A stretch of 63,730 nucleotides of DNA, filler included, from Reclinomonas americana ATCC 50394 (taxonomy: Eukaryota), in NCBI GenBank assembly GCA_048213135.1. It is 4 parts of one record of this genome, joined end to end, with 100 filler letters (N's around TTAATTAATTAA, not from the genome) between each part and the next. Parts side by side here need not be neighbours in the genome. Positions count along the whole stretch, not along the records: positions 1 to 24,426 come from PS015028.1; 3 more parts are not named here. One strand, given 5' to 3'. Every line of letters starts with the position of its first letter. Within the stretch, counting starts at the first letter, position 1. A program made the position numbers and the translations under genes. Below are positions 9,837-63,730 of this stretch, in pieces. Under the pieces are notes generated by a model. That model was given only the letters and a program-made list of their open reading frames with translations, was not told the DNA's origin and ran no database searches.

Positions 9837-12800
9837 ATGTCGTCTCCGCGCCGCTCGGGAGGGGGTGGAACACCACCACCATCACCACCACCTCCACTGC
9901 CCCATGCGGTGCCTCCACTGTCGTTGCCGTCGCCGAGTGAGAGCACTGAGCAGCAGGTGAGTGGGCAAAGGCATCATCAATGCACAGCAGTATGTTCAGA
10001 CTTACGCACACTCTCTCTCTCTCACACTCGCACACACGTCCACGCATCAGTCGCCCATCGCACCAGCGCAACGAGTGCTGTCGGCGGGCAACAGTCCACG
10101 CGAGGGCGCGCTCGGTGTGCCTCTGTCGGCTCGTGCACGTCCCAGCGCGCTGCGTAATCCACTGGTGAACAGAGCAGCGACGCCACCGACAACACAACAG
10201 CAGCAGCCGCAGCAGCAGCAGCATGCGTATGGTGCGGAACGAGTGGGCAGCAGTCGGGGTGGTGACAGCACAGCGCTCTTGGTGCCACCACCGCTGCCGC
10301 CACAACCACCACTCGCGTTGGCGCCAAGTTCACTCTTGTCGCCCATGACTGCTGGCGGAAGCGGGCGGTCAGTGTCGTTTCGGCGCAGTGCACGTCACAT
10401 GCCCACCAGTGGCGGGGGCGGCAGCGGCAGCGGCGGCGGCGGGAATGCGCTGCTCACCACCGGTGTGCCCGCCATTGTGCTCCTGCCTGAAGACACTGCG
10501 CCGCATCCGCTCTCGCCGGCCCTCGCCAGCCCCGTCGCAGCGGCGTCTCCTGCCACCGACACACCTGCGGCGTTGCGTCACTTTTCGCAGCCGCCGATGG
10601 ACCGCGTCGCAGTGAGTGCACTGCCCATGTTGGGTGGCTTTATGACGCCAGAGGGAGGAGCGAGAAACCCGATGCAACCGCGCCCCTCCATCACCTCATG
10701 CACCTCTGGCGACGTGTCTATCATCTCTGCTATCGACTCGAGTGAGGTACGCTGGCGTGCGCGATTGTCGGTCGATCTGTGTCACACGTGATTGACGTAG
10801 AACACACGCAGGCCGGCAGCGACGCAGAATTCGCCAGGGCCATGGACTCGCGGGCTCTGGGATGCCTCGGCCCAGAGAACGGCTTGCGTCTGTTCTTGGC
10901 CGACGTCATGCGCAACAAATATCCTTCATTTTTGCTCTTTCGCTTCTGTGTTGATTGGCCTCCTTGTGTGTGTGTCCTTGACTCCTACGTGCTGCTGCCA
11001 TTACGTGGTTCGACAGGACGATCATGATTGTGATTCTGCTCAACTGCGTGTTCCTGGCCATGGACAGCCCCTCAAGCTCTCCCCAAGACACGTCGTCGTT
11101 GCGTCGCAGTGGTCTAGTGCACGTCATTGACTGTTGGTGTGAAAACCAACACTGGTGGATGCAGAGCGATTTCGCGAATCTCGGAGCTCGTATTCAACTC
11201 CATCTTCACTGTGGAGATGCTCATCAAGGTCTCTCTCCCACTCCTTCTCTCTTCCTTTCTGCGTGCTGAGTTTGCGATGATTAGGTGTCGGTTCTCGGAT
11301 TTGTGGCACACCCTGGCGCGTATCTGCGAAACGGGTGGAACATTATGGACTTTTCCATTGTGGCGGTGGGCTGGATTGGCCAGCTGCCGGGCATTGGGTC
11401 GTTCACCGTGTTGCGCACACTTCGTGTACTGCGCCCACTGCGCACCATTACCACCATTCCAGGTGCACGATGATGTGTGCCCACGTTTTTTTGGGGTATC
11501 GTCGCAGTCCTCTCACGCTCTCTTTGTCATTGGCATTGCAGGGCTGAAAGTGATTGTGTCCTCCATCCTGCTATCGCTGCCTCGACTCGTCCACGTGCTT
11601 GGACTTGCGTGCCTGTTCTTCGTCATCTTTGGCACGCTGGCCGTGCAGTTGTGGAAGGGCATGCTGCAGTACCGATGCGTGGATGCGAATGGTGCGTCCC
11701 TGGCGCCTATTCTGGTATTCTCCCTTCCGCGTGGTGGTGCACCACAGCTCACAACGCATGCTCTTTACGCACAGGCAACCTGTTCGGAGTCGATCAACTG
11801 TGCAGCGTGGACGGCACCGGCTACGCGTGTCCCAGTGGCTACTCGTGCATCTCGGTCGGAATCGCACCGAACTCAGGATACACCAATTTCGACAACCTCG
11901 GCTGGGCCGTGCTGACCATCTTCCAGTGCATCACTCTCGAGGGCTGGTCCAACGTGATGTATGACGTTGCGTTGGCAAGCAAAACCGCAGTGGCACATTG
12001 TGTTACGAACTCACGTCGTATCTTAACGGGCGCAGACGCAAGACGCCTGGAATCCATACGCCTGCATCTATTTCATCGTGGTCGTGGTGTTTGGCGCATT
12101 CTTCATCCTCAACTTGGCTCTGGCTGTCATCAACGACAGGTTCCTGCGCAATCAGACGCGAATCGACGAGAAGCAGAAACGGCTGCGGATGAAGTTCGTC
12201 CATACAGATGATACATTAGTTCTTTTTGCACATGTCCCTGCGATGTGCTGACTGGTCTGACTGCGTACCACCACAGCACCCTCTACAATCGGCATCGCAG
12301 TGCGGCGCATTCGCGTTCGCACATGATGGGCTCGCAGCACAGTTTCATGGCCCGGGAGGCCAGCAATGCGAGTCAGATGCACAGCGCGCGCCGAGGGTTC
12401 GTTGTGAGCGCAACTCGTACTCTGGTTGCTTTGTATCGCATCACTTACATTTCACATAGGAGCGAGATGAGCGTGGCGTCGGACGCCACAGGGTGCGGAT
12501 GCATGTCGTTGTTGTCACGCCTTCTGCAACCTGTTAATCATTGATGCGTCGTGCGCAGCATTCCCGGTTTTGTCATTCACAAGATCAGTCTGCGTGATCT
12601 CGACGCCAGCAGGAATAACCTTCTCGGTGACAACGCACAAGGCGACAGCGGGCGCAACAATGGTGGTGCCAGAGGAGAATTTGATCGTGGTCGACGACCC
12701 CGTAACTGTGTTGTGCGCATCTACGACAAGACTGCAGAGTTCATCTCGGCATGCATTGGTCGTGTGCGTACATCCATCCACACCTTGTCGTTCGCCCTTG

Positions 12801-15800
12801 CTTCTTTCAACAGTCTGACTCTCTGTCTTGTCACGATGCTGCGCAGTGTCGCCGACAACGTGACGAGTACGAAGACGACTCCGATGTGGAGGACATGGAT
12901 GTGTGTGAATCGCTCGACGGCGTCGGCGACAAGCTCGAGAGACGTGCGTCGCAGGAGTCGCTGGAGTCGCTGAGCCAGGTTGTAGCCCCACAGAGTGCTG
13001 TGGCTGACGCGGACGAGAGGCCGCGTACTCGCAGCGTGCGTGTGGCGATGACGCCGACCAACTTGGATGACGAGCCGCCCGTTTCTGCTCGGCGACCTGC
13101 GACACCCCTGCAGCAGCCGACCGCCGGTCTACTGCGGCGCTTCTGGACTGCCTCTCGAGCGCTAACTATGCGCTTTGTGGCCAACAAGTGGTTCGGGCGC
13201 ACAGTACTTGCCGTCATTCTCCTCAACACGCTTGCTCTCGCCTTGCAATACTACAATATGCCGAAGATACTCAAGTCCATTCTCGGTGAGTGTGACAGAC
13301 AACAACATGCGGCGTGCTCACGTGTGTACACTGAGCGCTCACTATGCCGACCAGATGCCGGCGACGTGACCTTTACTGTGTTTTTCGTCTGTGAGATGGT
13401 GCTCAAGGTGTACGCCATGGGAGTACGAGACTATCTGAATTACACCTTTAACATCTTTGATGGTACGTCTGCTGCAAGTGCGCTCATTGTCGTTTTTTAA
13501 CCCCTCGTGTTGAATGGCGCAATAGGTGTGGTGGTCATCGTCAGCATTATTGATCTCTCCATCACGTCCCCGGATGGAGGGACATTTGGTTTCTCCGTGT
13601 TGCGCTCACTCCGCGTGCTTCGTATCTTCAAGTTGTTCAAGTTGAGTACTGTTTCCTGATGTACCGCTGTCTAGACCCCCGAGCTGACGCGTGCCGCTGT
13701 ATTATCAATCCGCAGGAGCGCCACTCGTCTGAATGGTGTCATGAAAATCATCACCAAGGCCATTATCAACATTGGCTACCTCAGCTTGGTCATCTTGCTG
13801 TTCTTGTTCGTCATTGCTCTGATCGGTACGTGGCAGCTACTCACAGTCAGTCTATATTGTGGTGATGTGTTAATTGCTGACTCTCTCTGGCATGCACACG
13901 CGCAGGCATGCAGATCTTCGGCACCAGCATGGATCCCAATGTCAGCAGCAACCGGGCCAGCTTCAATGATTTTGTGTGGGCCTCGTTGACGGTGTTCCAG
14001 CTCATTACCAGCGAGAACTGGAACGACGTTCTCACCAAGGGCATGAATGCAGCCGGCGTCGTCTCGTCCATTTTCTTTGTGTCGGTGGTGGTCTTTGGCA
14101 ACTGTATCCTTTTTTTTGATTGCTGCCTGTTGTTGTCGATTTGCTGTGCTGGTCTGACCTCCTTAACTTGCTCCGGCTCATCACAGTCATTCTTCTCAAC
14201 CTGTTCCTCGCCATTCTCATCCGAAGCTTTGACGAACGCCAGAAGAAGAAGGAGAAGAGGGTTCGCTGTGCAGTCGCACGTGCTGAGCACGCAAGCTTCG
14301 ACTCACTTGCCTGCGCGTCATGTGCAGGAGGAGGCTCGGAAGGGCAAGGGCGAAAACGACAACGGCGAGCAAGACAGCACCGATTCATCGTGCAGTTCTG
14401 AGGATTCGCTGATTTTCCTCCAAGCTCCACAGCTGCGCTTCTCTTTTATCTCGCATGCAAACGGTGCGGATCGTTGTCAAACATACTTTCTCTGTCTTTC
14501 CCCCCTTGTCGTTAAACTATCCAGCACAGACTCCCAGATCGATGCCACCAAAGAGAATCAGGATGCCGAGGCTGAGGTGCGTCCACTGCTGCTGCTGCCC
14601 ACCGAACAAAAAACAGACAGCACAATGAGCTCATCATCGCCTTTACCCGTGACTGCAGAAACCGCCTCCAGAAGTCACTGTGGAGGGCAAGAGCACTCCA
14701 GAAGTCACTGCCACCCCCGGTGTAGTGCCACATCTGCAGACAAGTTACGTCGATTGCGCGCACATGCAGCAATCAATCATCAATCCAACCATTACCAATT
14801 GTGCAGTGAGCGGTGATAGCATCCACCCGGCCGCACTGCTGTTTCGCATGCGAAAGCAATCGGTGCTCGGCAAGAAGGGCTTTTCGATCAAGCCGCACAA
14901 GAAGCGGCGGCGTTCGCCAGCTGTGGCACCCAGTACCGACAACTCGCTGTCGACAGGTCTATAATAGATCTATCGCGAGGGGGAGTCTGCTGCAAAATAC
15001 TCACACGCCACCTGTGTTGCAGTATCGGCCGGTGCACCTCTACGCAGCCTCTCGCGTCAGCGACTGTTGGCAGCAGCTGGCGAGGTGGAAGAAGTGTTGC
15101 ACAACTCCAGCTGGCGAAGTCAGCGTGGCCTGACGAGCGATCTGCCTCGCGGACGCAGCATGCGATTTGCTCAGGCCGCATCGGCTCATTCTGGTGCGTA
15201 CATGTGCATCACAAGATCTCTCACACTCGACTTTTCTCACAATATGCAGATGCCGATGCCCGTTCACACCTCTCCGATGAGATGTCCTCCGAGGGCTCTG
15301 CCGGTGCCCTCTTTGATGAGTCAGAGGTACGCACGCAAGCTTCTTCATTTTGTGCTCACAAACTCACCACTCGAGTGCAATGCAGTCTTCAGACGACTCG
15401 ACCGAGTCGCCAGCCGATGAGTTCGACCCGGTTCTCGGCTACCTCAAGGTCCAAGAAGCACAACAGCACGCCAGACCGCGGTGGTGTGGGTGTGTAGCTT
15501 TGGTACATCTTTCAGTTTCCCAACATGCTTTTATTCACTGGCATCCACGCAGTTGTTTGTGCGCGTGCACTCACAAACGACATGGAGATCAGGACGACAA
15601 CGAAGAGAAGAGCGCGGGCAGTGACGAATCCGACACCGTCGGCTGGTCCGACGACGAAGACGATGCTGGCGAGGGGGAGGGCCGCCAGCATACCGGCGGC
15701 ATACGGTCCATGTTTGTGCAAGACAACGATCCTGCGAACAAGTCCACAGAGTGGATTCAGCAGCAGCTCAGCAAATTGCGATCACCAGGCACGCGAAAGG

Positions 15801-18800
15801 CCAGCAAGAGTTGCGTCTGTCTCTCCACCCATAGTTTTCGTCACCGCGATCCGTCCCTGATGCGCCTGTGACAGGCAAGCCATCCGGCAAAGACAGCGAA
15901 GCAGGCAACAGTGCTGCAGATCGATCTCCGCACTCTCGACTGTCACAAGATGCGGGCTCATCAGCCTCCAGTGGTGCTCGCAAGAGCCCGCCGCCGCCGC
16001 CACCGCCGCCGGTCGATCGTCGCAGCAGTCGCAGCAGTTCTGTTGCCTTGTCAACGACGCCGTCAGAATCGGCCGTCGTCAATGTGCGGGCCATCTCGCA
16101 ACAATTGCAGCACGAGGGCAGCTTGCCGAGCGACCTCAAGCAGAAGGTCGACGGCCTCCTCATTCGTGGACCGAGCGTGGATGCCCTGCGCTCCAAGTAT
16201 GTGCAGTTGTGGCACGCGATGTATCGTTCGTTGTAGCTAACTCACGGATGAGATTGCAGTCGTCGATGTGTGGACACATTCTGTTGCTTGGAGGTGGGCG
16301 AGAACGGCTCACGAGCGTTGCGTCGGCCGCATGAAGCAAGTTGCTCCAGTGACGTTTGTTGAAACTTACACCCACGATGGTTATATCGCAGGCCGAAAGA
16401 GTTCTCCAACTTGGAAGGTCACTCTCTTCACACAATGTCTATGCTGGGAAGAGAAAAGCATTGTGAAACTCACACTACGCTCTTTCTCCGGTCGCAGAAT
16501 TGTCGCTGGGCTTCTTGAGCAAGGACAACTTGATTCGCATCCTTGCTGGCCGATTGACATTCTCGAAACTGTTCGAGTTCATTGTGGTCATGGCGATTCT
16601 GGTCAGCAGCGCCAGTCTCGCCATCGACCATCCGAATCTGTCCATTACCTCCACTGTTACGTGCAACGGTGGTGTGCAGCTGGATGGCATGCATTCTGAA
16701 TGTTGTTTGCCACAGCGGTACGTAGTTCTGCAGATACTCAACGAAGTGACGCTTGTCATTTTTGCTGTGGAGGCTGTGGCGAAGATCATCACCCTCGGCT
16801 TCGTGTCCGGCAAGGTTCCTTGACCACACAATCTCTACATGCGAAGATGTGGTGAACTGTTTGCTAACAGGCCACACACAACAGACGACATATCTACGCC
16901 AACCGTGGAATGTGCTTGATTTTTTCATCCTCATCGTGTCGGTAATTACGGAGGTGGCCAGCACATCGGCCATCAGTTCTCTGAAGTCGGTACGAAGAAA
17001 TTGTTGTCGTCGCACCATTGCTTCATACTGATGTTACTGGTCCATGACCAGCTACGTCTATTCCAAGTCATTCGACCTCTGCGTGTGCTGTCACGATCCA
17101 AGGGTCTTCGCATCGTGGTGGTTTCGCTTCTCGGTGCAATCCCGTACATTGGGCATGTCGTGATCGTGGCCGGTATTATCTACCTGCTGTTTGGCATTGT
17201 GGGCGTGCAGTTCTTCGCCGGCACCTTTTACCAGTGCACCGATCCCGACATCACGACCTTGAATGTGCGTGTGGTGCCGTACATCGCAACCAGTGCCGGT
17301 AGATGTTACTGACAATGATACTCCCCTCACAGGCGTGCGTGGGAACTTTTGTCGACAGCGACGGGCTGGTAGCCACACGACAGTGGGTGTCCGACAACGG
17401 CAACTTTGACAACATTCTCAACGCTATCCTCGGTGCGCCGCAACGTGCTAACTCGTCTCTTGCGCCACTCACTCACTGACTTTGCGTGGCACAGTGCTGT
17501 TTGAGTTGTCGACGCTGGAGGGCTGGCCTCTGCACATGTACCGCGGCATTGATTCAGTCGGTGAGTCTTGCTGGCAGATACCGTTTGAGTGACGTTCATG
17601 CTGCTCATGCGTGTGCTTACAGGCGTCGGCGTGGCTCCACAACTCAACAATCGACCGTACATGGGACTGTACTACGTGGGCTTCATTGTCGTTGGTGCCT
17701 TCTTTGTCATGAATCTGCTGGTCGGAGTCATCATCCGGAACTTCAACCGCGTCAAAGCCGATTTAGATGGCTTGCTCTTCTTGACAGCGGTTCGGCCACG
17801 CAGGCACGCAGTTTGCTGCGCCACTCCCCTCTCTTATTTTGTGCATGTGTGTCTGTCTGTGCACAGGCCCAGCAAGAGTGGCAGGAAACAGAGCGAGTGT
17901 TGATGCACTTCAAGCCGATCTTCCGACCACAGCCGCCGAAAAACCCCATCCGCCTCTTCTGTTATCGCATCGTCAGCTCGGTCGTGTTCGAAGCCATCGT
18001 TGAGTAAGCAAGTGCGCCACGCATCACCTACTGCTACCGCTGCGGCATGCTTATTTTCCCTTGTCGTTCAGGTCACGGTCTTGCTGGTACTGAACATCAT
18101 CGCCATGATGACCGAGCACTATCCGTCTCCCGACTCGTACGACAAGGCACTGGAAATGGTGAATCTCATCTTTACCGGCATCTTCACCGTCGAAGCGGCG
18201 CTCAAGATGATTGGCAACTCGCCGCGTGGGTGCGTTTCCTGCACACCTGCACCGACTTTACATGTGTGTGCCGCCTCTCACTCACCCCTCGACAGGTACT
18301 TCCGCGACCCGTGGAACACGTTTGATTTCATCATTCTGGCCTTGTCGTGGTTCGGCCTGTTGGCCGAGATGCTCACCACAGCAGCACTGCAGCCGTCGAT
18401 TCTGCGAGTGTTCCGCAGTTTCCGCCTTGTGCGCATCTTGCGTCTCCTCAAGAGCGCCAAGAGTGTGCGGCTGTTGTTGCAGGTGCGTAAAGGAGATCTT
18501 CTGTGCGCGACTGCTGACCGACCATTCATTCTCTCAATGTGTTGTGCCTCACTGCCAGACCATCTACTACGCCATTCCGTCCCTGTTCAACGTCGGCACC
18601 TTCCTTTTCCTCTTGTTCTTCATGTACGCCGTACTGTGCGTGAACCTGTTCTGGAACGTGAAGGATGGCGCTGCACTCAGTGAGCACGCTAATTTCTCAG
18701 TTGCGTCTGCGAAGCTGTCGGTGCATGTGTCATACGCCGTCTCACCGTACGCACCTCTGCAGACCTTTGGAGTGGCCATGCTTACGCTGCTGCGCATGAG

Positions 18801-20168
18801 TACTGGTGAAAACTGGAACGGCATCATGCGTGACTGCATGGTGGAGCCACCGACGTGCAGCGATGATTTGGTTTCGTTGTCGTTGCTGTCATCCCATCAA
18901 TGCAAGCACTTGCATTCTCACCATTGCGGTGTGTGCAGGGCAACTGCGGAACCTCGTGGGCCTGGCTCATTTTCGTCACATTCATGTTGATCGGCTCGTT
19001 TGTGATGACCAATCTGTTCATTGCTGTCATTCTCGACGAGTTCTACAACACCATGCGCATCGAGGAGAGCCCTCTGAAATCCGACGACTTGTTCCGGTGC
19101 GTCCCACCCCCCGTTAATGCACCAGTTTTCACATTCACTGCTCCCCTTCTCGTGTACTTATGTACTGCACTCGCGTCGTCATCAGATTCATCGAGGTGTG
19201 GGCCAAGTTTGATCCTGGAGCCACCCACTTGATTCCCACGGTACGTGTAACAGCAGCTTCGCGACCTATTTCCGTCTGTATCGCAGTGCACTAATTGAGT
19301 TCCGATCTTCAGTGCCAACTGAAAGCACTGTTGGCGGAACTCGGCGAGCCACTGGGTCTGGAGAAGGATGTCGGCCGCGCACTTGTCATTCGAAAGATGG
19401 TGTCGCTCGACATTCCCGACCGCGGCGGCGTCATCCACTTTGTAGAGACGCTGATTCCACTGGCCCGCAAGGTCTTCAAGATCATTCTGCCGGAGAGGAC
19501 GCGGCGACATCACGAGCGCATCTGGAAACGCGCCTTCCCCTCACTTCAGAATCTGCCGAGTCCGCGATACTTTTGTGGCGAGTACTTTGCCGCCACATAC
19601 ATTCAGGCCGCATACAAGGGCCGCAAGACACGGCAAGCCATTCGGTCAACTTTCTTCCACGTGCCAGCCAAGCACGCAGCGATAGCCGACTCCACGCAGC
19701 AGCTGCCGCACAGTGCGTCCTGCCATTTTTGCCATTTGTACAACCCCCCTTTCCCTCTCTCATTTCTCACCTGCTCACAGCCGACGACCAACCGTGCCTC
19801 ACGAACGACGAAATGCTCCGACTGCGGGCCACTGGCCAGCAGGCCTTTGTGTACTTCCGCACGCAGTCCACTGGCGAGCTGGTGCGGGTGGCCTTTACGC
19901 GCGACGAGAAGAAGCGAGGGCGCGTGCACAACTTCCTCGAGGTACGTACGAAGAGCACGTACAGCACAGCGAGGCACCGACTTTTTGTTTCTCATTCTTC
20001 GTTCCCTTTCCGCGGCAGCTCTCGACGGCCACGAGAACCGAGCTCATCACCTTCCCGCGTGCCTCTGAAGAAAACATTATCGTGACTCCGTCGGACGATG
20101 CGAGCACAAGTGTGAGCTCTCGTTCGCGCACGCATCGCCGGCGACGCCACAGGTCACCTAGAACATAA
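9837..20168 (+). CDS. Four-domain voltage-gated Ca2+ channel alpha-1 subunit (about 40 introns)
   Basis: Four S4 segments ([55 protein letters not shown]). Pore loops TLEGW/TSENW/TLEGW/TGENW give an EEEE filter. EF-hand-like [10 protein letters not shown] and IQ motif [13 protein letters not shown] in the C-tail. Confidence 0.95.
10919..11004 (+). other. U12-type (minor spliceosome) AT-AC intron
   Basis: Donor ATATCCTTC, branch TCCTTGAC at 10975-10982, acceptor TAC. Removal restores [18 protein letters not shown] (IS1). Confidence 0.92.
14104..14186 (+). other. U12-type GT-AG intron
   Basis: Donor GTATCCTTT, perfect branch TCCTTAAC at 14160-14167, acceptor CAG. Removal restores [15 protein letters not shown] (IIS6). 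Confidence 0.93.
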
Positions 20169-20191: not shown

Positions 20192-23097
20192 CTATCTCGC
20201 ATATGGGTAGCCGCTATCTAGTGCTGGCGGCGGCGGCGGCGGCGGTGGCGGTGGTGGAGGTGGTGGCGGCGGAGGTGGTGGCGGCGGCGGAGGTGGTGGA
20301 GGTGGTGGTGGAGGGAGAGCTGCTGGCAGGCTGGGCGACGCAACAGCAATAGTGGGAGCTGTTGCTGCATTATTGCTCTGCACAACGCGCTTGTAGTCTG
20401 CACCACGACCCAGCAGTGTCATTCCTTTCGTGAACTCGATCGCATGGCATCAACGAGAAGAACGCAACGCTCATTCCACGATGCAAGCGCCTCCAGGTAG
20501 GCGCGCAGTTGTGCTGCATTGTCAGCTGCTGTGACGAACGGTGAGACACCCACACAACACAGACGTGCTCCACATCAAGCACACACACACGCACACACAC
20601 CTGCCGGCGTCTGCGATTGCAGCGGCTGTGTTGATGACATGGGTGGGGCCATGGCACCACTGGCGGTAGACTGGCGCGCAGCCACAGATGCCGCCGCGGC
20701 CGCAGCAGCAATGGAGGGTCCGAGCAGTGCAAGTGCATTTGGTGGCACTGACGGCTGCGTGAAGGTGGCGGCAGTCGTCGTCGTCGTCGTCGTCGTCGTG
20801 CTCGCCAAGGAATTCCGAGCCGCCGACATGACGGCGGCCGCAGCGGCCGCCGCTGCAGCAGCTGGCAGTGACGCACTGCCACCATTGTGTTGCGGCAATG
20901 AAGCCAAGAGTTGCGTGAGCATGAACCCGCCGGTCATGGGAAGGCCTGTATTCAACCGACATGAGCATCACAGCGCACGCTGTCTTTGGAACAGGCAAAC
21001 GACTACCGAACCTGCAACGGCAGCCACCGCACTGGTGAGTCCCGGAGATGCCTGCTGTTTGACTGCATCATCACAGGGAAAAATGAGTGTCATTGTTCCA
21101 TGCCACCATTATCCACAAAGCGATAACTCACCAACAGGCGCTCCGGTGGACGACAGCGCCGTCTGCGACTTGCGGCTTGCGGACATCAACCCGAATCGCT
21201 CCAGCACCATGTCGGCAAGCTCACGCGGATCACCTGCACACGCAATGGTGGGTGAGAGAAAGTACTGGCTGGACACGGAGGGGGGAAGAATGGACGCACG
21301 CAGATACTGCTCCTGAAAGCAGTAGCTAAACCCCGGTTTCCTTCCGTCACCGTCAATGTGCGTCTTCTGAATGATCACGACCGCGCACAGCACATTGGCA
21401 ATATCGTAGAGACGGCGGATCTTGCTGGCGGCTGTGGCACACGGGTGAGTGCCTGTCGTGAACAGACATGCACAAGGTACACCGCAACATTGCTTCTCCT
21501 GGGTCGTGGGATTGACGGGTGTGCCCAGCAGCTTCTGTGCGATGACGTCGAGCGAGAGCGGCCGCCTCTGAAGCACGACAATTATGAGCACAGGCGGTGG
21601 AATAGATTACGCATTCAAGCACGCACGCACGCACCCTCGCCGGCGGCATGGTCAAGAACAACTGAATGAAGCGACGGCTGAGCAAACCCAGCGACTTTTC
21701 CCGTCCACCCTGTCGACCATCTCCATCATCGCCGATCGCAGACTGCACGTCAAAATCGTGCTCCTCTTCGCTCGCCGCAGCCATGCTCGCCGCCGCGACC
21801 AGTGGTGCAAACGGTGACGCAGATGACGCAGATGACGAGGATGACGACGCCATGAGCACCGTGATCGAGGGCCCTGAAGCAGCAGAAGCACCTCCAGCGA
21901 CCGCCGGTGACATGAACATCTGCACAGGCGTGCACACAGGTCAGTGTCCAGCATCACACGTGTGATGATGGTGGAAGTGAATGAGCGGAACTGGTTGCGG
22001 CTCGGCTGTCGACAACGTGGCATTGGTCCCATCTGTACCCTCACTGTGGCCGCCCCCTCCATCAGTTTAGCAATGTGGAGGCGACATGACGTGTGTATAC
22101 CACGCAACTTGCCGCCTGGCTTGCCACACACCGCGGCCTTGGAGTCCATGTCGCGCGCACGTGTGCTGCTCGTGCCAGCCACCAAGAAATCCGCATCCGT
22201 CATGCCTTGCGCCTCATCCTGCACGGCATTGTGCACAATGGGTATTTTGTGGAATGCAGTGCATCAAAGAGCACCACACACCTCCATTCGCCGAAGCACA
22301 CCAGCAACGCCACTCAAGCCCTTCCATCGGTAGCTGTTCTTCGCGATCCGTACCACCACTTCGATACTCTCGAGCACGTTCACAATGTCGTAGATTCGAC
22401 GCCGCTCAACACCTATGCAGTCAGTGAGCAGACTGAACAAGATACGGATACAACTGCGGGAGAACCACCCACCAAGAATCGTGGCTGCGCGATCAATGCA
22501 AATGTCGTGGTCCAACATGGGCCCATAGTGTCCGATAAACCTGGAGAACAGAAAAAAAAACAGGGAGCGTGTGAGCAACGACAGGAGTGGCACGCCACCC
22601 AGGCGGCCGTCTCACCGTGCACACAAAGTGCCGAGGCTCTTGTCCTTGCGCGAGTAGTACATTTTCGAACTGGGATCGCCAGCCACTCCACGCGGCTGCA
22701 CCATTGTGTACTTGCTCGGCGCGGTGTCGTCATACAAAAACTGCGGCCGACGCGCTGCTAAGGCAGCAAGCCTGGCCGCATCCTCTGCTGCCGACGACGG
22801 CGACGACGACGAAGGAGGCGGTGGTGGTGGTGGCGGCGGTGGTGGCCGTGGCGGTGCCACGTAACGCGACGACTGGGCGGCAAGCGACGAGGGCTTCGAG
22901 GCGCCACGAGCAGACGTGCCCTTGGCTGGCGACTCGGACGAGAGTACCAGTGCTCGTGATCGCTTCGCCGCAGCCGTGGCCGCCGCGGTGACCGCTGCCG
23001 CGGCCGCCACCGAGGGTGACGTGGGCGACGTGGGCGACAGTACCGACTTTCCCGCTGCCTTGGTGGGGGTCGTGCGTGGCGAGCTGGCCGGCGCGTG
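20192..23097 (-). CDS. Atypical E2F (E2F7/8-DEL type, two DNA-binding domains), 5' part in or beyond the gap
   Basis: DBD1: YSRKDKSLGTLCAR...VERRRIYDIVNVLES...KNSYRWKG. DBD2: REKSLGLLSRRFIQLFL...KIRRLYDIANVL...RKPGF. Poly-Pro tail. Confidence 0.9.
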
Positions 23098-24025
23098 CTG
23101 CAAAGAAAATAATGTCTCTCAGTTTAGAAAAGAAGAACCCTGGCCAAACCGANNNNNNNNNNNNNNNNNNNNNNNNNNNNNNNNNNNNNNNNNNNNNNNN
23201 NNNNNNNNNNNNNNNNNNNNNNNNNNNNNNNNNNNNNNNNNNNNNNNNNNNNNNNNNNNNNNNNNNNNNNNNNNNNNNNNNNNNNNNNNNNNNNNNNNNN
23301 NNNNNNNNNNNNNNNNNNNNNNNNNNNNNNNNNNNNNNNNNNNNNNNNNNNNNNNNNNNNNNNNNNNNNNNNNNNNNNNNNNNNNNNNNNNNNNNNNNNN
23401 NNNNNNNNNNNNNNNNNNNNNNNNNNNNNNNNNNNNNNNNNNNNNNNNNNNNNNNNNNNNNNNNNNNNNNNNNNNNNNNNNNNNNNNNNNNNNNNNNNNN
23501 NNNNNNNNNNNNNNNNNNNNNNNNNNNNNNNNNNNNNNNNNNNNNNNNNNNNNNNNNNNNNNNNNNNNNNNNNNNNNNNNNNNNNNNNNNNNNNNNNNNN
23601 NNNNNNNNNNNNNNNNNNNNNNNNNNNNNNNNNNNNNNNNNNNNNNNNNNNNNNNNNNNNNNNNNNNNNNNNNNNNNNNNNNNNNNNNNNNNNNNNNNNN
23701 NNNNNNNNNNNNNNNNNNNNNNNNNNNNNNNNNNNNNNNNNNNNNNNNNNNNNNNNNNNNNNNNNNNNNNNNNNNNNNNNNNNNNNNNNNNNNNNNNNNN
23801 NNNNNNNNNNNNNNNNNNNNNNNNNNNNNNNNNNNNNNNNNNNNNNNNNNNNNNNNNNNNNNNNNNNNNNNNNNNNNNNNNNNNNNNNNNNNNNNNNNNN
23901 NNNNNNNNNNNNNNNNNNNNNNNNNNNNNNNNNNNNNNNNNNNNNNNNNNNNNNNNNNNNNNNNNNNNNNNNNNNNNNNNNNNNNNNNNNNNNNNNNNNN
24001 NNNNNNNNNNNNNNNNNNNNNNNNN

Positions 24026-42737: not shown

Positions 42738-45700
42738 ATGGTGCGCACGCACATGGAGGCTTTGTCGACAGAGGATTCCTCTGACTGACTCTTCCCCTCT
42801 CTCTTTGCTCACAGTCTGCTGACGACTTCAAAGCACGCGGCAACGAGGCCTTCTCTGCGAAACAGTACGCAGAGGCCGCCGAGCTCTTCTCCAAGGCCAT
42901 TGAGCTCGACAACAGCAACCACGTGTTCTACTCCAATCGCGCTGCCTCGTACCTCAACCTGCACAAGTTGCGTGCTCACAAAAAAAGGGAGTGACGCGTG
43001 TGTGCGTGTTTGCGCATGCACACACGCACGCACACACACTCTTGCACGCACACAGAGAGAGAGGCATCACTCGTGTACTGCACACGCGCATGTAGAGAGT
43101 GTGTGTGAGCAGAGCGCGTGGAGAAGAGAGGCCGGACGATAAGTGATGTCACTCTCTGACGCAATCATCATCATTCAGGTATGAGGAGGCACTTGTGGAT
43201 GCTGATCATGTGACCTCGGTGAAGCCGGATTGGGCGCGCGGATGGCATCGTAAGGCCGATGCGCTGTATGGACTCGGGCGCATTGCGGACGCAAAGGAGG
43301 CGTATGAGCGCGGACTGCAATTGGACCCGGACAACGCTGCGATGCAGACGGGTCTGCGTGACTCACTGGCGCGTCTGTCGAACGGACCGGGACCGGCTGG
43401 CAATCCACTGGCGGAGCTGTCGTCGATCTTCTCCGATCCGAATCTCAAGCAGAGGATTGCGTCAAATCCGCGTCTGGCGCATCTCATGGCGCAGCCGGAC
43501 TTTGTGCGCAAGCTGGAGGACGTGCAGCGCGATCCCTCCAACCTCAAGCAGCACATGTCAGATCAGCGTATTCTGCAGGCGGTGCTCACGTTGATGGCTG
43601 GCGACCAGTTTATGTTTGCCGATGAGCCGCCAATGCCGAATGGTGGCGGTGCGTCGTCGTCGTCGTCCTCGTCGTCCAGTGCTCCTCCCAAGGTTCGTGA
43701 AGTGCACGTTCCTCTGTCGTGCGTTTTGATGCTGAAACGACTGTTGATTAACAGAAGGAGGCGGCCAAGGCGCCGGAACCAGAGCCGGAACCAGAGGACT
43801 TGTCACCCGAGGAATTGGAGAAGCGCGATCGCCGACAGGTGTGTCTCTTGCTCTTATTCTCTCTTCCATTGCTTGGGCTAACCTGGTACTTGTGACGTGC
43901 CAGCGTGCGGAAAGGCTCAAGGAGGACGGCAACGAGCTGTACAAGCAAAAGAGCTTCGAGGCGGCGCTGGCACTCTACCGTGAGGCCGCGGACCTCGACC
44001 CGGAGAATGTCGTGTACCGTCTGAATGCGGCGTCGGCGTACTTTGGCATGGAGGACTACGAGAAATGCATTCTGGAGTGCGAGGAGGCGGTGCAGAAGGG
44101 CCGAAGTGTGCTCGCCGACTTTAAGCTCATTGCCAAGTTGCGCTTATGCTGTTTTTGCAGAGCCTATCGTCATCAGCTCATGGCTTTTCTTTTCCCGCGG
44201 CAGGGCCTACTTCCGCATGGGCAACGCGCTGGCCAAGCTCGGACGCGACGAGGACGCCGTCAAGGCCTACGAGCAGAGTCTGATTGAGCACCGCGATCGC
44301 GAAGTGCTCAACCGCAAGACCGCTGTTGCGTACGCTCATTCTGTTTTGTGCCGGTGTGAGTGGGTGAAGCTCATTTGTATGGAGGTGTGCAGTTGGAGCG
44401 CGACATGCGAAAGAGAAAGGAGGAGGCGTACCAGAACCCGGCATTGAGCATGGAGCACCGCACCAAGGGCAACCAGTTCTTCCAGGAGCAAAAGTACCCC
44501 GAGGTATGCATGCTTCGTTTCATTCATGATCACCCTTGCGAGTGTGGCTCACTTTNNNNNNNNNNNNNNNNNNNNNNNNNNNNNNNNNNNNNNNNNNNNN
44601 NNNNNNNNNNNNNNNNNNNNNNNNNNNNNNNNNNNNNNNNNNNNNNNNNNNNNNNNNNNNNNNNNNNNNNNNNNNNNNNNNNNNNNNNNNNNNNNNNNNN
44701 NNNNNNNNNNNNNNNNNNNNNNNNNNNNNNNNNNNNNNNNNNNNNNNNNNNNNNNNNNNNNNNNNNNNNNNNNNNNNNNNNNNNNNNNNNNNNNNNNNNN
44801 NNNNNNNNNNNNNNNNNNNNNNNNNNNNNNNNNNNNNNNNNNNNNNNNNNNNNNNNNNNNNNNNNNNNNNNNNNNNNNNNNNNNNNNNNNNNNNNNNNNN
44901 NNNNNNNNNNNNNNNNNNNNNNNNNNNNNNNNNNNNNNNNNNNNNNNNNNNNNNNNNNNNNNNNNNNNNNNNNNNNNNNNNNNNNNNNNNNNNNNNNNNN
45001 NNNNNNNNNNNNNNNNNNNNNNNNNNNNNNNNNNNNNNNNNNNNNNNNNNNNNNNNNNNNNNNNNNNNNNNNNNNNNNNNNNNNNNNNNNNNNNNNNNNN
45101 NNNNNNNNNNNNNNNNNNNNNNNNNNNNNNNNNNNNNNNNNNNNNNNNNNNNNNNNNNNNNNNNNNNNNNNNNNNNNNNNNNNNNNNNNNNNNNNNNNNN
45201 NNNNNNNNNNNNNNNNNNNNNNNNNNNNNNNNNNNNNNNNNNNNNNNNNNNNNNNNNNNNNNNNNNNNNNNNNNNNNNNNNNNNNNNNNNNNNNNNNNNN
45301 NNNNNNNNNNNNNNNNNNNNNNNNNNNNNNNNNNNNNNNNNNNNTCCAGTGCCAGCGCAGTCTGGTAGCAGTCCACCGCCTTGTGCCACTCCTTCAGCAG
45401 GAAATGCGCCTGCGCCTTGCGCACGTGCGCGCGGACTGCACAGCGCAGTGAGTACACAACAGAGTACATCTGAGCGGGACCACGCACACACACGAGGGAC
45501 TCACCAAAGTCGGGCTTGAGTTCCAGCGCCTTCTCGCAGTCCTTCAGTGCTCCCGGCAACTCGCCGAGCTTGATCAGGCACGCCGCACGATTGCTGTAGG
45601 GCACATGGTCCGTCGGGTTGCGCTTGATGGCCTCGTTGTACTCGACAATGGCCTGAGCACGGCACCACNNNNNNNNNNNNNNNNNNNNNNNNNNNNNNNN

Positions 45701-46241
45701 NNNNNNNNNNNNNNNNNNNNNNNNNNNNNNNNNNNNNNNNNNNNNNNNNNNNNNNNNNNNNNNNNNNNNNNNNNNNNNNNNNNNNNNNNNNNNNNNNNNN
45801 NNNNNNNNNNNNNNNNNNNNNNNNNNNNNNNNNNNNNNNNNNNNNNNNNNNNNNNNNNNNNNNNNNNNNNNNNNNNNNNNNNNNNNNNNNNNNNNNNNNN
45901 NNGCCTGAAAATGCCGAAGCTCAGGAGGGCTTGGCGCGTGTCTCGACGGCCATTTCGATGAACCAGGGCAAGCCAGATCCCGAGCGCGTGAGGTGTGTGT
46001 ACTTCTTTCCATGTGGGTGTGCGTGGCCGTGTTTGCTGACAAATGTACTCGCAGACGAGCACAGGAGGATCCGGAGATCCAAAACATCCTGACCGACCCC
46101 GCGATGAAGCAGGTGCTGGATCAGATCCAGACCGACCCACAGGCCGCACGCACGCATCTGTCAAACCCCGTGGTCCAGGGACGGTTGCAGAAGCTCATTG
46201 CTGCCGGTGTGCTGAGCATTGGCGGTGGTGGGCGCGAGTGA
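42738..46241 (+). CDS. STI1: Hsp70/Hsp90 organising protein STI1/HOP (TPR1-DP1-TPR2A-TPR2B-DP2); contig 45345-45668 is flipped
   Basis: M|SADDFKARGNEAFSAKQY, NHVFYSNRAA, KPDWARGWHRK, LKEDGNELYKQKSF, RTKGNQFFQEQKYPE, EYNEAIKRNP (on the minus strand), AQEDPEIQNILTDPAMKQVL...LQKLIAAGVL. Confidence 0.96.
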
Positions 46242-58676: not shown

Positions 58677-61600
58677 CACATCCACGTTCACCATCAGCGA
58701 AGGTTTGTATCGCTCCTTATCTGTTAAAAGTCGCGTGGCTGACTTAGTGTCTGGGGTGCGCAGCAAATGTGCCTCCGTCTGCTCCGACGATTTCGTCGAC
58801 TGCGTACAACCCACCGCTGGCCCTCAACGACGTTATCGGCGTCTTGTCCTCGACAGACGCAAACACTGGACAGGTTTTGACGTTCAGCATTGTGGGTGGT
58901 GCGGATCAAGCCTCGTTCAATATTAGTGGGTCCAATCTTCGTTGCAATGTTGCCGGCCTCTCCGGCTCCAACTTGGTGGTCATTGTGCAAGTTAGTGACG
59001 GTGCTGGTGGCACAAACACCACAACATTTACGATCGGCAGCTGTTGCGTTGCATTCCACTCTCTCTTGAATCGCCTGGTTGTTGCGCCTGCCTGACTTTG
59101 CTCCGTGAAACACAGCGAACTTGCCGCCGTCTGTGCCCACGTTGTCGACTGTGCTTTACGTTCCACCTCTGGCGCTCAACGGCGTCATTGGCGCGTTGTC
59201 GGCCACCGACCCGAACGTCGGCCAGACGCTGACATTCAGCATTCTGGGAGGAGCCAACTCGGCGCTCTTCAACATCAGTGGCTCAGACTTGCGATCCAAT
59301 GTGGCTGGTCTCGTCGGCAACAACTTGGAGGTAATTGTCGAAGTCAGCGATGGATTCGGCGGACTGACAAATGCCAGATTCTTGATCAGCGAAGGTTGGT
59401 GGCACGCCGCGGCTCTCGTGTCTTGCACAAGTCGTGCATGCTGTTGCTCATTCTTCTCCCGCACACAGTCAACGTGCCACCCACTGCACCCATCCTCTCG
59501 TCCTCGTCGTACATTCCCCCACTGGCCGCCAATGGAGTCATTGGCATCCTGTCATCCACCGACGTCAACAGCGGGCAGTCGTTGACGTTTACGATCACTG
59601 GTGGTGCGCATCAGGCACTGTTCAACATCAGTGGTTCCAGCCTCCGAAGCAGTGGTGCCGGACTCACCGGCAACAATCTGTCGGTGGAGGTCACTGTGTC
59701 GGATGGCGCCGGTGGCACTAACGTCAGCACATTCGTCATTGGCGAAGGTCTGATGCACCTGCTGTCTGACGTCCCATTTTTGTTTGCTGATTTGATTGTC
59801 TGTCGCGACCGCACAGCCAACGTGAATCCCACTGCGCCGGTGCTGTCTGCGCTCTCATTCACACCGCCGCTTCCGTTCAACGGCGTCATCGGCGCCCTGT
59901 CCTCCACAGACCCCAATACGGGTCAAGCGTTGACGTTCACCATTACCGGAGGCGTCAACGCAAGCTCGTTTGCCATTGTCGCCTCGGACCTGCGCTCCAA
60001 TGTGGTGGGACTGAGTGGAATCAATTTGCAAGTGGTGGTGACCGTCAGTGATGGTGCAGGTGGCACCGCCAGCAGCACATTTACCATCACTGAAGGTACG
60101 GTTTCGTGTTTCCAGAATTCATTCACGCTGGTACTCATGAGGTGCTGCTGTACATAGTCAATGTGCCACCATCTGCTCCATCCCTGTCACCCTCGACGTA
60201 CGCGCCGCCTCTGGCACTCAACGGTGTCATTGGCACCCTCTCGTCGTCGGATCCGAATACGGGACAGACGCTCTCGTATTCCATCATCGGCGGCGGCAAT
60301 CAGGCATCGTTCAGCATCAGCGACACAAGTCTGCTGTCGAATGTTGCCGGCTTGACAGGAAACAGTCTGCAGGTGACTGTGCAAGTCAGTGATGGCGCCG
60401 GAGGTATCAACAGTACGACGTTCTCGATCAGCGAGAGTTGCGTGATTGAAGTCTGTGGCAAGACGCGATGTCACTGTCGCTGAATGCTTGTTCCTTGATT
60501 GCAGGCAATGTGCCCCCGAGTGCACCAACACTCTCGACCACTCTGTATGCGCCACCACTGGCCTTGGGCGGCACAATCGGCACACTGGCCGCCACTGATG
60601 CGAATTCTGCGCAGACACTTGTTTACGCAGTCACCGGTGGCACAGATCAGTCCGACTTTTACGTTGTTGGCAACAGCTTGCTCTCCCATGTCAATGGACT
60701 CAGCGGCAACGGTCTTCAAGTGGAGGTCACTGTGTCGGACGGAGCCGGNNNNNNNNNNNNNNNNNNNNNNNNNNNNNNNNNNNNNNNNNNNNNNNNNNNN
60801 NNNNNNNNNNNNNNNNNNNNNNNNNNNNNNNNNNNNNNNNNNNNNNNNNNNNNNNNNNNNNNNNNNNNNNNNNNNNNNNNNNNNNNNNNNNNNNNNNNNN
60901 NNNNNNNNNNNNNNNNNNNNNNNNNNNNNNNNNNNNNNNNNNNNNNNNNNNNNNNNNNNNNNNNNNNNNNNNNNNNNNNNNNNNNNNNNNNNNNNNNNNN
61001 NNNNNNNNNNNNNNNNNNNNNNNNNNNNNNNNNNNNNNNNNNNNNNNNNNNNNNNNNNNNNNNNNNNNNNNNNNNNNNNNNNNNNNNNNNNNNNNNNNNN
61101 NNNNNNNNNNNNNNNNNNNNNNNNNNNNNNNNNNNNNNNNNNNNNNNNNNNNNNNNNNNNNNNNNNNNNNNNNNNNNNNNNNNNNNNNNNNNNNNNNNNN
61201 NNNNNNNNNNNNNNNNNNNNNNNNNNNNNNNNNNNNNNNNNNNNNNNNNNNNNNNNNNNNNNNNNNNNNNNNNNNNNNNNNNNNNNNNNNNNNNNNNNNN
61301 NNNNNNNNNNNNNNNNNNNNNNNNNNNNNNNNNNNNNNNNNNNNNNNNNNNNNNNNNNNNNNNNNNNNNNNNNNNNNNNNNNNNNNNNNNNNNNNNNNNN
61401 NNNNNNNNNNNNNNNNNNNNNNNNNNNNNNNNNNNNNNNNNNNNNNNNNNNNNNNNNNNNNNNNNNNNNNNNNNNNNNNNNNNNNNNNNNNNNNNNNNNN
61501 NNNNNNNNNNNNNNNNNNNNNNNNNNNNNNNNNNNNNNNNNNNNNNNNNNNNNNNNNNNNNNNNNNNNNNNNNNNNNNNNNNNNNNNNNNNNNNNNNGAA

Positions 61601-63730
61601 AGACAAGTTGTGCGAGCGTATGTGTGTGTGAATGCACACCTTCGCTAATTACAAATGAACTTGTGGCTGAGCCACCGGCGCCGTCGCTGACCGTCACTGT
61701 CACTTGCAGGCCGTTGCCAGTGAGACCGGCCACATTGGCACGGAGACTGTTGCCGCTAATGTTGAACATGGACTGATTGGCGCCTCCAGTGACAGCGTAC
61801 GTCAGCGTCTGGCCCGTGTTCACGTCGCTTGACGAGAGCAGGCCAATGACACCGTTGAGTGCCAGCGGAGGAATGTAGGTGTTGGTCGAGAGGGTGGGAT
61901 CAGTTGGAGACACATTGGCTGCGATTCACGTGAGTATGGCAAACATGATACGCACGATGGTAATGCGAATCACCTTCGTTGATGAGGAAAGTACTCGAAT
62001 TGCTGCCTCCTGCGCCGTCGGAGACAGTGACCGTGACTTGCAGGCCGCTGCCGGTGAGGCCTGCGACAGCGGAGACAAGATCGGAGCCGACAAGCGAGAA
62101 GGAGGCCTGTGCGGTACCGCCGGTGATGGTGAACGACAGCGTCTGCCCAGTGTTCACATCGGTGGCGGCGAGTNNNNNNNNNNNNNNNNNNNNNNNNNNN
62201 NNNNNNNNNNNNNNNNNNNNNNNNNNNNNNNNNNNNNNNNNNNNNNNNNNNNNNNNNNNNNNNNNNNNNNNNNNNNNNNNNNNNNNNNNNNNNNNNNNNN
62301 NNNNNNNNNNNNNNNNNNNNNNNNNNNNNNNNNNNNNNNNNNNNNNNNNNNNNNNNNNNNNNNNNNNNNNNNNNNNNNNNNNNNNNNNNNNNNNNNNNNN
62401 NNNNNNNNNNNNNNNNNNNNNNNNNNNNNNNNNNNNNNNNNNNNNNNNNNNNNNNNNNNNNNNNNNNNNNNNNNNNNNNNNNNNNNNNNNNNNNNNNNNN
62501 NNNNNNNNNNNNNNNNNNNNNNNNNNNNNNNNNNNNNNNNNNNNNNNNNNNNNNNNNNNNNNNNNNNNNNNNNNNNNNNNNNNNNNNNNNNNNNNNNNNN
62601 NNNNNNNNNNNNNNNNNNNNNNNNNNNNNNNNNNNNNNNNNNNNNNNNNNNNNNNNNNNNNNNNNNNNNNNNNNNNNNNNNNNNNNNNNNNNNNNNNNNN
62701 NNNNNNNNNNNNNNNNNNNNNNNNNNNNNNNNNNNNNNNNNNNNNNNNNNNNNNNNNNNNNNNNNNNNNNNNNNNNNNNNNNNNNNNNNNNNNNNNNNNN
62801 NNNNNNNNNNNNNNNNNNNNNNNNNNNNNNNNNNNNNNNNNNNNNNNNNNNNNNNNNNNNNNNNNNNNNNNNNNNNNNNNNNNNNNNNNNNNNNNNNNNN
62901 NNNNNNNNNNNNNNNNNNNNNNNNNNNNNNNNNNNNNNNNNNNNNNNNNNNNNNNNNNNNNNNNNNNNNNNNNNNNNNNNNNNNNNNNNNNNNNNNNNNN
63001 NNNNNNNNNNNNNNNNNNNNNNNNNNNNNNNNNNNNNNNNNNNNNNNNNNNNNNNNNNNNTTGAGTTACTCACGCCGTCTGTGTGCAGCCAATGTGTCGC
63101 CGTCGTCGCCGGTGCTGTCGACCCTGGTGTACCAGCCACCTCTCGCTCTCCATGGAACTATTGGCACGCTGTCGGCGACCGACGTGAACACGGGCCAGAC
63201 ACTGTCGTTCTCCATCACTGGCGGTGCCGATCAGGCGTCGTTTGAGATCAATGGAACCACTCTGCGCTCCAGTGTCGCGGGTCTGGTGGGCTNNNNNNNN
63301 NNNNNNNNNNNNNNNNNNNNNNNNNNNNNNNNNNNNNNNNNNNNNNNNNNNNNNNNNNNNNNNNNNNNNNNNNNNNNNNNNNNNNNNNNNNNNNNNNNNN
63401 NNNNNNNNNNNNNNNNNNNNNNNNNNNNNNNNNNNNNNNNNNNNNNNNNNNNNNNNNNNNNNNNNNNNNNNNNNNNNNNNNNNNNNNNNNNNNNNNNNNN
63501 NNNNNNNNNNNNNNNNNNNNNNNNNNNNNNNNNNNNNNNNNNNNNNNNNNNNNNNNNNNNNNNNNNNNNNNNNNAGAGCCATGTCCACGGGGCCAACTGC
63601 GGAGTGTGAGAAATCAGCAAAGAGAAAGCTCAAACCATGGAGAAAGACAACGCACTTGATGTGATAGTGAATGTGGCCTGTGACGATCCACCGGCACCGT
63701 CGCTTACCGTCACGACGACTTGCAGACTCG
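58677..63730 (+). CDS. Large tandem-repeat protein with cadherin-like beta-sandwich repeats, one 93-aa repeat per exon; contigs 61598-62173 and 63575-63730 are flipped
   Basis: At least 10 copies of xNVPPSAPTLS...PPLALNGVIGxLSSTDxNTGQTLTFSIxGGAxQAxFxISGxxLRSNVAGLxGxxLxVxVxVSDGAGG...FxISE. Confidence 0.8.

Follow-up and report, generated by a model that had tools for sequence, protein, structure and literature searches.

The four-domain voltage-gated channel gene on the + strand of the window (the whole stretch of DNA analyzed here, 63,730 nt) contains an 83-nt, phase 1 GT-AG intron of the U12 type at 14104..14186 (+), within segment IIS6. The codon, the phase, and the GT-AG subtype are all the same as those of the IIS6 minor intron of animal Cav1 and Cav2 genes. 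From the observed splice signals, the match in position, and the placement of the protein in phylogenetic trees, we hold with good confidence that the intron would have been inherited from an ancestor shared with animal Cav1 and Cav2 and that the host, a discobid and probably a jakobid, keeps a minor spliceosome. Somewhat more guardedly, the host is likely to be a jakobid with a working minor spliceosome and with both of the animal Cav minor introns at the animal positions.

Splice Signals and Reading Frame

The 5′ splice site GTATCCTTT is found at 14104..14112 (+), the branch site TCCTTAAC at 14160..14167 (+), and the 3′ splice site CAG at 14184..14186 (+). The donor was assessed by a word count and by comparison among introns, and the acceptor by a frame check. 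The donor has the RTATCCTT form and the branch site the TCCTTRAC form near the 3′ end that define U12-type introns. The spacing from the branch site to the end of the intron is 19 nt, inside the range of 9–22 nt (median 13) for the animal loci.

When 14104–14186 is spliced out, a phenylalanine codon split in phase 1 is joined and the S6 frame is restored. GT or GC donors in 14061–14130 were paired with AG or AC acceptors in 14161–14215, and the sole GT-AG pair that opens the frame into NLFLAI is 14104–14186. Three GC-AG pairs likewise open into NLFLAI, but S6 residues are then deleted or inserted. The upstream exon (13906..14103, +) encodes the pore loop of domain II and the first half of S6 and ends in FGN; in an alignment with human Cav3.1 and Cav2.2 it matches domain II and stops at their GN. 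The downstream exon (14187..14260, +) encodes the remainder of IIS6. The sequence-only reading had described a U12 GT-AG intron in phase 1 with its branch site 19 nt before the end, and with signals and frame in agreement 14104–14186 is confirmed at the sequence level as a real U12-type intron.

Scarcity of U12-Type Signals in the Window

The word RTATCCTT occurs three times in the window against 0.41 expected, at the two donors of the channel gene and at 35016. Both strands were also scanned for donor, branch site, and acceptor together using a weight matrix trained on animal U12 sites; the scan covers the readable part of the window, 9,958 of the 63,730 bases being N. Two matches of 27.8 and 26.8 bits were obtained, both in the channel gene, and none of 30 shuffled sequences reached 24 bits. 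The scan of the readable window thus finds the same two minor introns, in one gene and with no others, that had been noticed from the sequence. Thirteen weaker donor-like sites were inspected: 11 are not donors with a branch site, one runs into N, and the last, 35016, lacks a branch site and has a probable exon opposite it.

The second of these introns is an 86-nt AT-AC intron of the U12 type in phase 2 at 10919..11004 (+), at the start of IS1 (RN-K|WFD), with the branch site TCCTTGAC at 10975–10982. The first AC in this intron is 6 nt past the branch site (10987–10988) and out of frame, and the in-frame AC sits 22 nt past the branch site; the AC at 10987–10988 is a possible site of mis-splicing.

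Altogether 34 introns of 56–94 nt were modelled in the gene, with most of the II–III linker outside the model and the boundary at 11098 uncertain. RTATCCTT and TCCTTRAC are both present without mismatch in 2 of the 34, and the other 32 have 2–6 donor mismatches. Since the two introns with a perfect donor and branch site are both at animal Cav sites, this distribution counts for inheritance.

A shifted donor form, GTTNNG, is present at 7 of the 34 donors (11098, whose boundary is uncertain, 11966, 18700, 13641, 16656, 17999, and 18871). Six of the seven are preceded by an exon base other than G, and the exact form GTTGCGT is present at 3 of the 34 donors. Elsewhere in the window, an E2F/DP-family gene at 20400–23100 (−) apparently encodes two DNA-binding domains and is one that we take to be E2F7/8-like. 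Animal E2F genes are rich in minor introns; no U12 signal was detected in 20400–23100 by the weight-matrix scan. Tandem repeats of about 100 amino acids, cadherin/Ig-like (Big_9, weak), are found on both strands at 58790–63291.

Match with the IIS6 Minor Intron of Animals

A search pattern was composed of the U12 branch word, the acceptor, and a back-translated S6 motif in phase 1. A stricter form of the pattern has one match in the window. At least 116 loci were matched in metagenome contigs, and 93 of the 116 listed loci continue as [I/T/V]LLNVF[L/I]AIAVDNL, which is animal-type Cav1 or Cav2; the other 23 look like chance matches. The acceptor is an AG at the same codon and in the same phase in all 93, in agreement with the position at GN|YxLLNVFLAI given for the animal Cav1/Cav2 minor intron in the sequence-only reading. 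Compared on the DNA, the position of the window intron coincides with that in animal Cav genes. In 39 of the 93 listed loci, GN and one further base are followed at once by a GTATC[C/T]T donor; in the remaining animal-type loci such a donor was not found within the DNA examined, many of these being short. The metagenome loci are redundant and reduce to 33 distinct donor–exon pairs. Two of the exons were compared with solved structures, and one is Cav1-like, starting at human Cav1.2 residue 743, and the other is Cav2-like.

Because the pattern selects U12 branch sites, these matches demonstrate the presence of the minor intron and not its frequency. No Cav3 locus is among the 116 listed, though the pattern could match Cav3; Nav genes, including invertebrate Nav2, are unable to match it. 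As a control, 596 Gb of prokaryotic genomes were scanned with a slightly stricter pattern; no channel exon is among the 4 matches. In viral contigs, a donor-side pattern matched 26 times without any tblastn similarity to channels, a branch-anchored pattern gave 0 matches, and related-locus scans with the channel proteins P0068 and P0061 gave no match. An acceptor-only pattern gave 7 matches and no channel. No second non-animal gene with the IIS6 minor intron is among the matches listed, and the link to animals is therefore carried by one protist gene.

Minor introns in Cav1 and Cav2 have been noted at the level of the family (PMC2831892), and in rat two are reported in Cacna1c and one in Scn5a in the available text of PMC8767276. 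For the CACNA1F variant c.2239+5C>G, the normal transcript was wholly lost where about 35% had been predicted, and U12 is unmentioned in the accessible portion of that report (PMC11395040). The variant name implies a phase 1 donor of exon 16 with C at +5. This site, with the +5 C in the donor, looks like what we presume to be the Cav1.4 copy of the IIS6 minor intron. Among papers listed in a search on splice variants of human CACNA1 genes at the predicted positions, none was clearly relevant.

Ordinary Introns at Shared Positions

Exon junctions were rebuilt in 14 longer animal loci and mapped onto the window protein. The comparison covers domains I–III, and domain I is reached by one animal locus, the Cav2 locus L093. 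The IIS6 junction coincides in 13 of the 14 loci; L093 failed the automatic step but has a donor after GN. Four U2 introns of the window gene are also at animal positions: a phase 1 intron after IS4 (11463..11541, +) and a phase 0 intron within domain I's pore loop (11966..12035, +), both shared with L093, a phase 1 intron between IIS1 and IIS2 (13286..13354, +; 8 of 14 Cav1/Cav2 loci), and a phase 2 intron after IIS4 (13641..13715, +; 11 of 14 Cav1/Cav2 loci). Three of the five window introns in domain II coincide with animal sites, of which eight were seen; the chance of this is about 1e-5 under uniform placement. In domain III, for which three loci are available, 0 of 7 window introns coincide, in line with chance, and this counts against inheritance. 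The four further U2 positions in domains I and II bear out the deep conservation that had been proposed from the two minor introns, and the IIS6 position suggests that this intron is very old.

These shared positions bear on a parallel gain, in which the same codon would have acquired a U12 intron independently, aided by U12-like words in the S6 coding sequence. Such words exist: Y-I-L can read ATATCCT, L-L-N can read CCTTAAC, and animal exons often begin with A[C/T]ATCCT. Both U12 introns, however, are at animal sites, as are the four U2 introns, and a simple tandem duplication would be expected to leave a branch word beside the donor and no terminal AG. A parallel gain is accordingly judged highly improbable.

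Phylogenetic Placement of the Channel Protein

The channel gene spans 9837..20168 (+), with a predicted start and stop and with the II–III linker (14577–16497) partly modelled. The selectivity filter is E/E/E/E, as in Cav1 and Cav2 channels, with the E codons at 11939, 14013, 17518, and 18808, and an IQ-like motif is present at the C-terminus. Nav filters are of the DEKA/DEEA type; the window channel, with its EEEE filter and its position outside the Nav clade, is not a member of Nav. The domain II filter of the window channel is TSENW, with N where Cav1 and Cav2 have D, and the animal loci have TGEDW or TSEDW. A TRDDW filter motif is found in many euglenozoan members of the clade described below. 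No Cav-beta AID motif, an element of the I–II linker, was detected in three frames of 12001–13200, and Cav1 and Cav2 controls were positive. The choanoflagellate protein P0019 is also without an AID motif. The aspartate after the domain II filter E is a Cav1/Cav2 feature, and its lack, together with no AID, is described as typical of protist channels in the consulted part of PMC6259924.

Four trees with 72, 42, 31, and 25 rows were constructed from about 190 retrieved channels selected by score, length, and name; 30 proteins were named by look-up, besides others already named. In all four trees the window protein joins proteins of Percolomonas, Entosiphon, Apiculatamorpha, and diplonemids. This Discoba clade has 100/99 support under LG+G4 with bootstraps, and a mixture model gives 99. 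Every member of the clade with an organism name is heterolobosean or euglenozoan, and several rows are nameless. A separate clade with 100/100 support unites Cav1, Cav2, and the choanoflagellate protein. When the window protein is forced into the Cav1/Cav2 clade, lnL is 29.8 lower and the AU test gives p = 0.051, which is short of formal rejection. The backbone of the tree is without resolution, and the Andalucia and Stygiella proteins that were retrieved sit in another clade; these points, with the AU result and the nameless rows, count against the Discoba reading. By its place in these trees the window channel is probably not a Cav1/2 and groups with Discoba channels.

The identity of the window protein to its nearest proteins is just 38–43%, compared with 32–34% to animal Cav and Nav, and a tree must place every row somewhere. 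A scaffold that is not discobid, being either a contaminant or from an unsampled lineage, would place the intron in a group from which minor introns have been reported before. Searches with a second marker, STI1/HOP, were uninformative on the lineage: one gave 19 mostly unrelated TPR matches, and in another the best 120 of 436 are dominated by animals. Strong Discoba support across the four trees, in which the window row drew no long-branch warning, argues against a foreign scaffold, which is considered improbable. The STI1/HOP gene is on the + strand at 42815–46240, and a TPR2B-like piece at 45350–45660 is on the − strand between N gaps; this piece is probably a mis-oriented contig within the scaffold.

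Comparison with Nav Genes

The GN asparagine corresponds to residue 927 in human Nav1.5, and the equivalent of the Cav site in SCN5A is therefore c.2782. Exon 16 of SCN5A starts at c.2437 in the available text of PMC5505308, and the variant name c.2788-6 marks the next acceptor in that of PMC5753651, which places intron 16 after codon 929 in phase 0. The SCN5A intron in IIS6 (c.2787/2788) is thus 5 nt downstream of the Cav-equivalent site in this comparison with one vertebrate Nav gene, whose boundaries are taken from variant names. The gene structure of the window channel had been allied with Cav on the basis of its minor introns. The exact Cav codon and phase sustain this alliance, but with the Nav1.5 intron 5 nt away it is weaker than had been claimed, and the protein itself is in the Discoba clade.

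The sequence-only reading had also placed the second Nav minor intron in the pore region of domain III. The documented second AT-type Nav donor is at c.4437+1 (bioRxiv 2022.03.14.484344, in the text available), which falls at the end of IIIS6, following K1479, and not in the pore loop. The second AT-AC introns of sodium channels are described as U2-type. At the K1479 site the window gene is intronless.

The IIS6 intron site may predate the split of Cav and Nav, and the SCN5A and Cav1/Cav2 introns are candidates for the sliding of one intron accompanied by U12-to-U2 conversion. The vertebrate Nav intron would then be a slid, U2-converted descendant of an intron older than the split. The short distance from the phase 0 site at c.2788 to c.2782 is consistent with such descent, as are the domain I sites common to Nav and Cav in the accessible part of PMC6259924 and the absence of resolution in the backbone of the channel tree. 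The window intron, however, is at the exact Cav site and not at the Nav site, and the SCN5A boundaries c.2262 and c.2436 are in phase 0, compared with phases 1 and 2 for the two other shared introns of domain II. An intron older than the split is possible but on balance unlikely; it is compatible with inheritance from an ancestor shared with animal Cav1 and Cav2 and would remove only the alliance with Cav.

Proposed Minor Splicing in Discoba

Within the portions of text available, the minor spliceosome is inferred to have been lost completely 23 times, with Discoba as one case (PMC9887622), no minor introns were found in Discoba using a species set with Andalucia godoyi and three Naegleria (PMC10639083), six excavate genomes gave no strong evidence of minor introns (PMC11347168), and diplonemids are without U12-type snRNAs (PMC10161547, PMC12621601). 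The parts of PMC8280824 and PMC2846911 that were searched contain nothing on Discoba. In the literature searched, which was free text exclusive of subscription papers and of figures such as the protist intron sites on Figure 7 of PMC6259924, no report was found of the IIS6 minor intron outside animals or of minor introns in a jakobid. The animal intron was known already, and its occurrence outside animals appears not to be described in that literature.

If the host is a discobid, the intron contradicts the published lineage-wide loss of minor splicing. A motif match by itself could more easily be set aside as a false positive than a discobid intron at a position conserved in animals. If the proposed inheritance is true, the IIS6 minor intron goes back to the ancestor that animals and Discoba share. 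Under most proposed roots of the eukaryotic tree, this ancestor is the last eukaryotic common ancestor.

The signals might instead be relics in a lineage that lost the minor spliceosome, with the intron removed by a modified major spliceosome. The loss in Discoba inferred in the part of PMC9887622 consulted would agree with relic signals, and the 63,730-nt window has no Rfam match and no U11, U12, U4atac, or U6atac gene was detected in it. Against this, two introns, of which one is AT-AC, have both a perfect donor and a perfect branch site, the remaining 32 bear no resemblance to them, and U12 signals not under selection would be expected to decay. Relic signals are regarded as quite improbable.

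With a minor spliceosome retained in the host, the splicing of 14104–14186 can be proposed from the established roles of U11, U12, and U6atac in the minor pathway. U11 would pair with the ATCCTT of the donor, and U12 with TCCTTAAC, leaving the branch A bulged. U6atac would then take over at the donor, with the CAG that lies 19 nt past the branch site serving as the acceptor. Retention of the 83 nt shifts the frame and leads to a stop about 80 codons on, after two of the four domains. Since a retained intron breaks the frame, production of the channel would depend on two minor-splicing events, and minor splicing is a possible regulator of the level of the window channel. In rat cardiomyocytes, knockdown of U6atac lowers Nav1.5 and Cav1.2 in the text available from PMC8767276; much of minor-intron evolution is argued to be neutral in the consulted part of PMC10639083.

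Comparison with Known Systems

The closest proteins to the window channel are the EEEE channels of Percolomonas, Entosiphon, Apiculatamorpha, Sulcionema, Lacrimia, and Namystynia, which are in the same clade. In the channels of Heterolobosea and Euglenozoa, at 38–43% identity, IIS6 mostly has GD[F/Y], whereas the window channel has GNF. GD[F/Y] is the usual form in P0087, P0061, P0140, P0001, and their relatives, and nearly all other channels have GN. Diplonema is reported to be without U12 introns and snRNAs.

Intron 16 of SCN5A is likewise inside IIS6, but it differs from the window intron in being 5 nt downstream and in phase 0. SCN5A intron 25 (c.4437, AT donor) is the second AT-type intron of that gene, at the end of IIIS6, and is absent from the window gene. 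The D1S1 AT-AC site is documented for Nav1, Nav2, Cav1, Cav2, and Cav3 in the accessible part of PMC6259924, where it is described from alignments of animals and a choanoflagellate. The AT-AC U12 intron of the window gene likewise lies where IS1 begins; its match to D1S1 is by description and not by codon.

The known intron most like that at 14104–14186 is the second minor intron of animal Cav1 and Cav2 genes, a phase 1 GT-AG intron that falls at the same codon, following the GN of IIS6 (Y742 in human Cav1.2). The animal introns have the same GTATCCTT donor and a CCTTRAC branch site at a similar distance from the 3′ end. They differ in length, 127–2273 nt in 39 animal loci compared with 83 nt in the window. 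The split codon encodes F in the window channel, which is outside the Cav1/Cav2 clade, and Y in animal Cav1 and Cav2.
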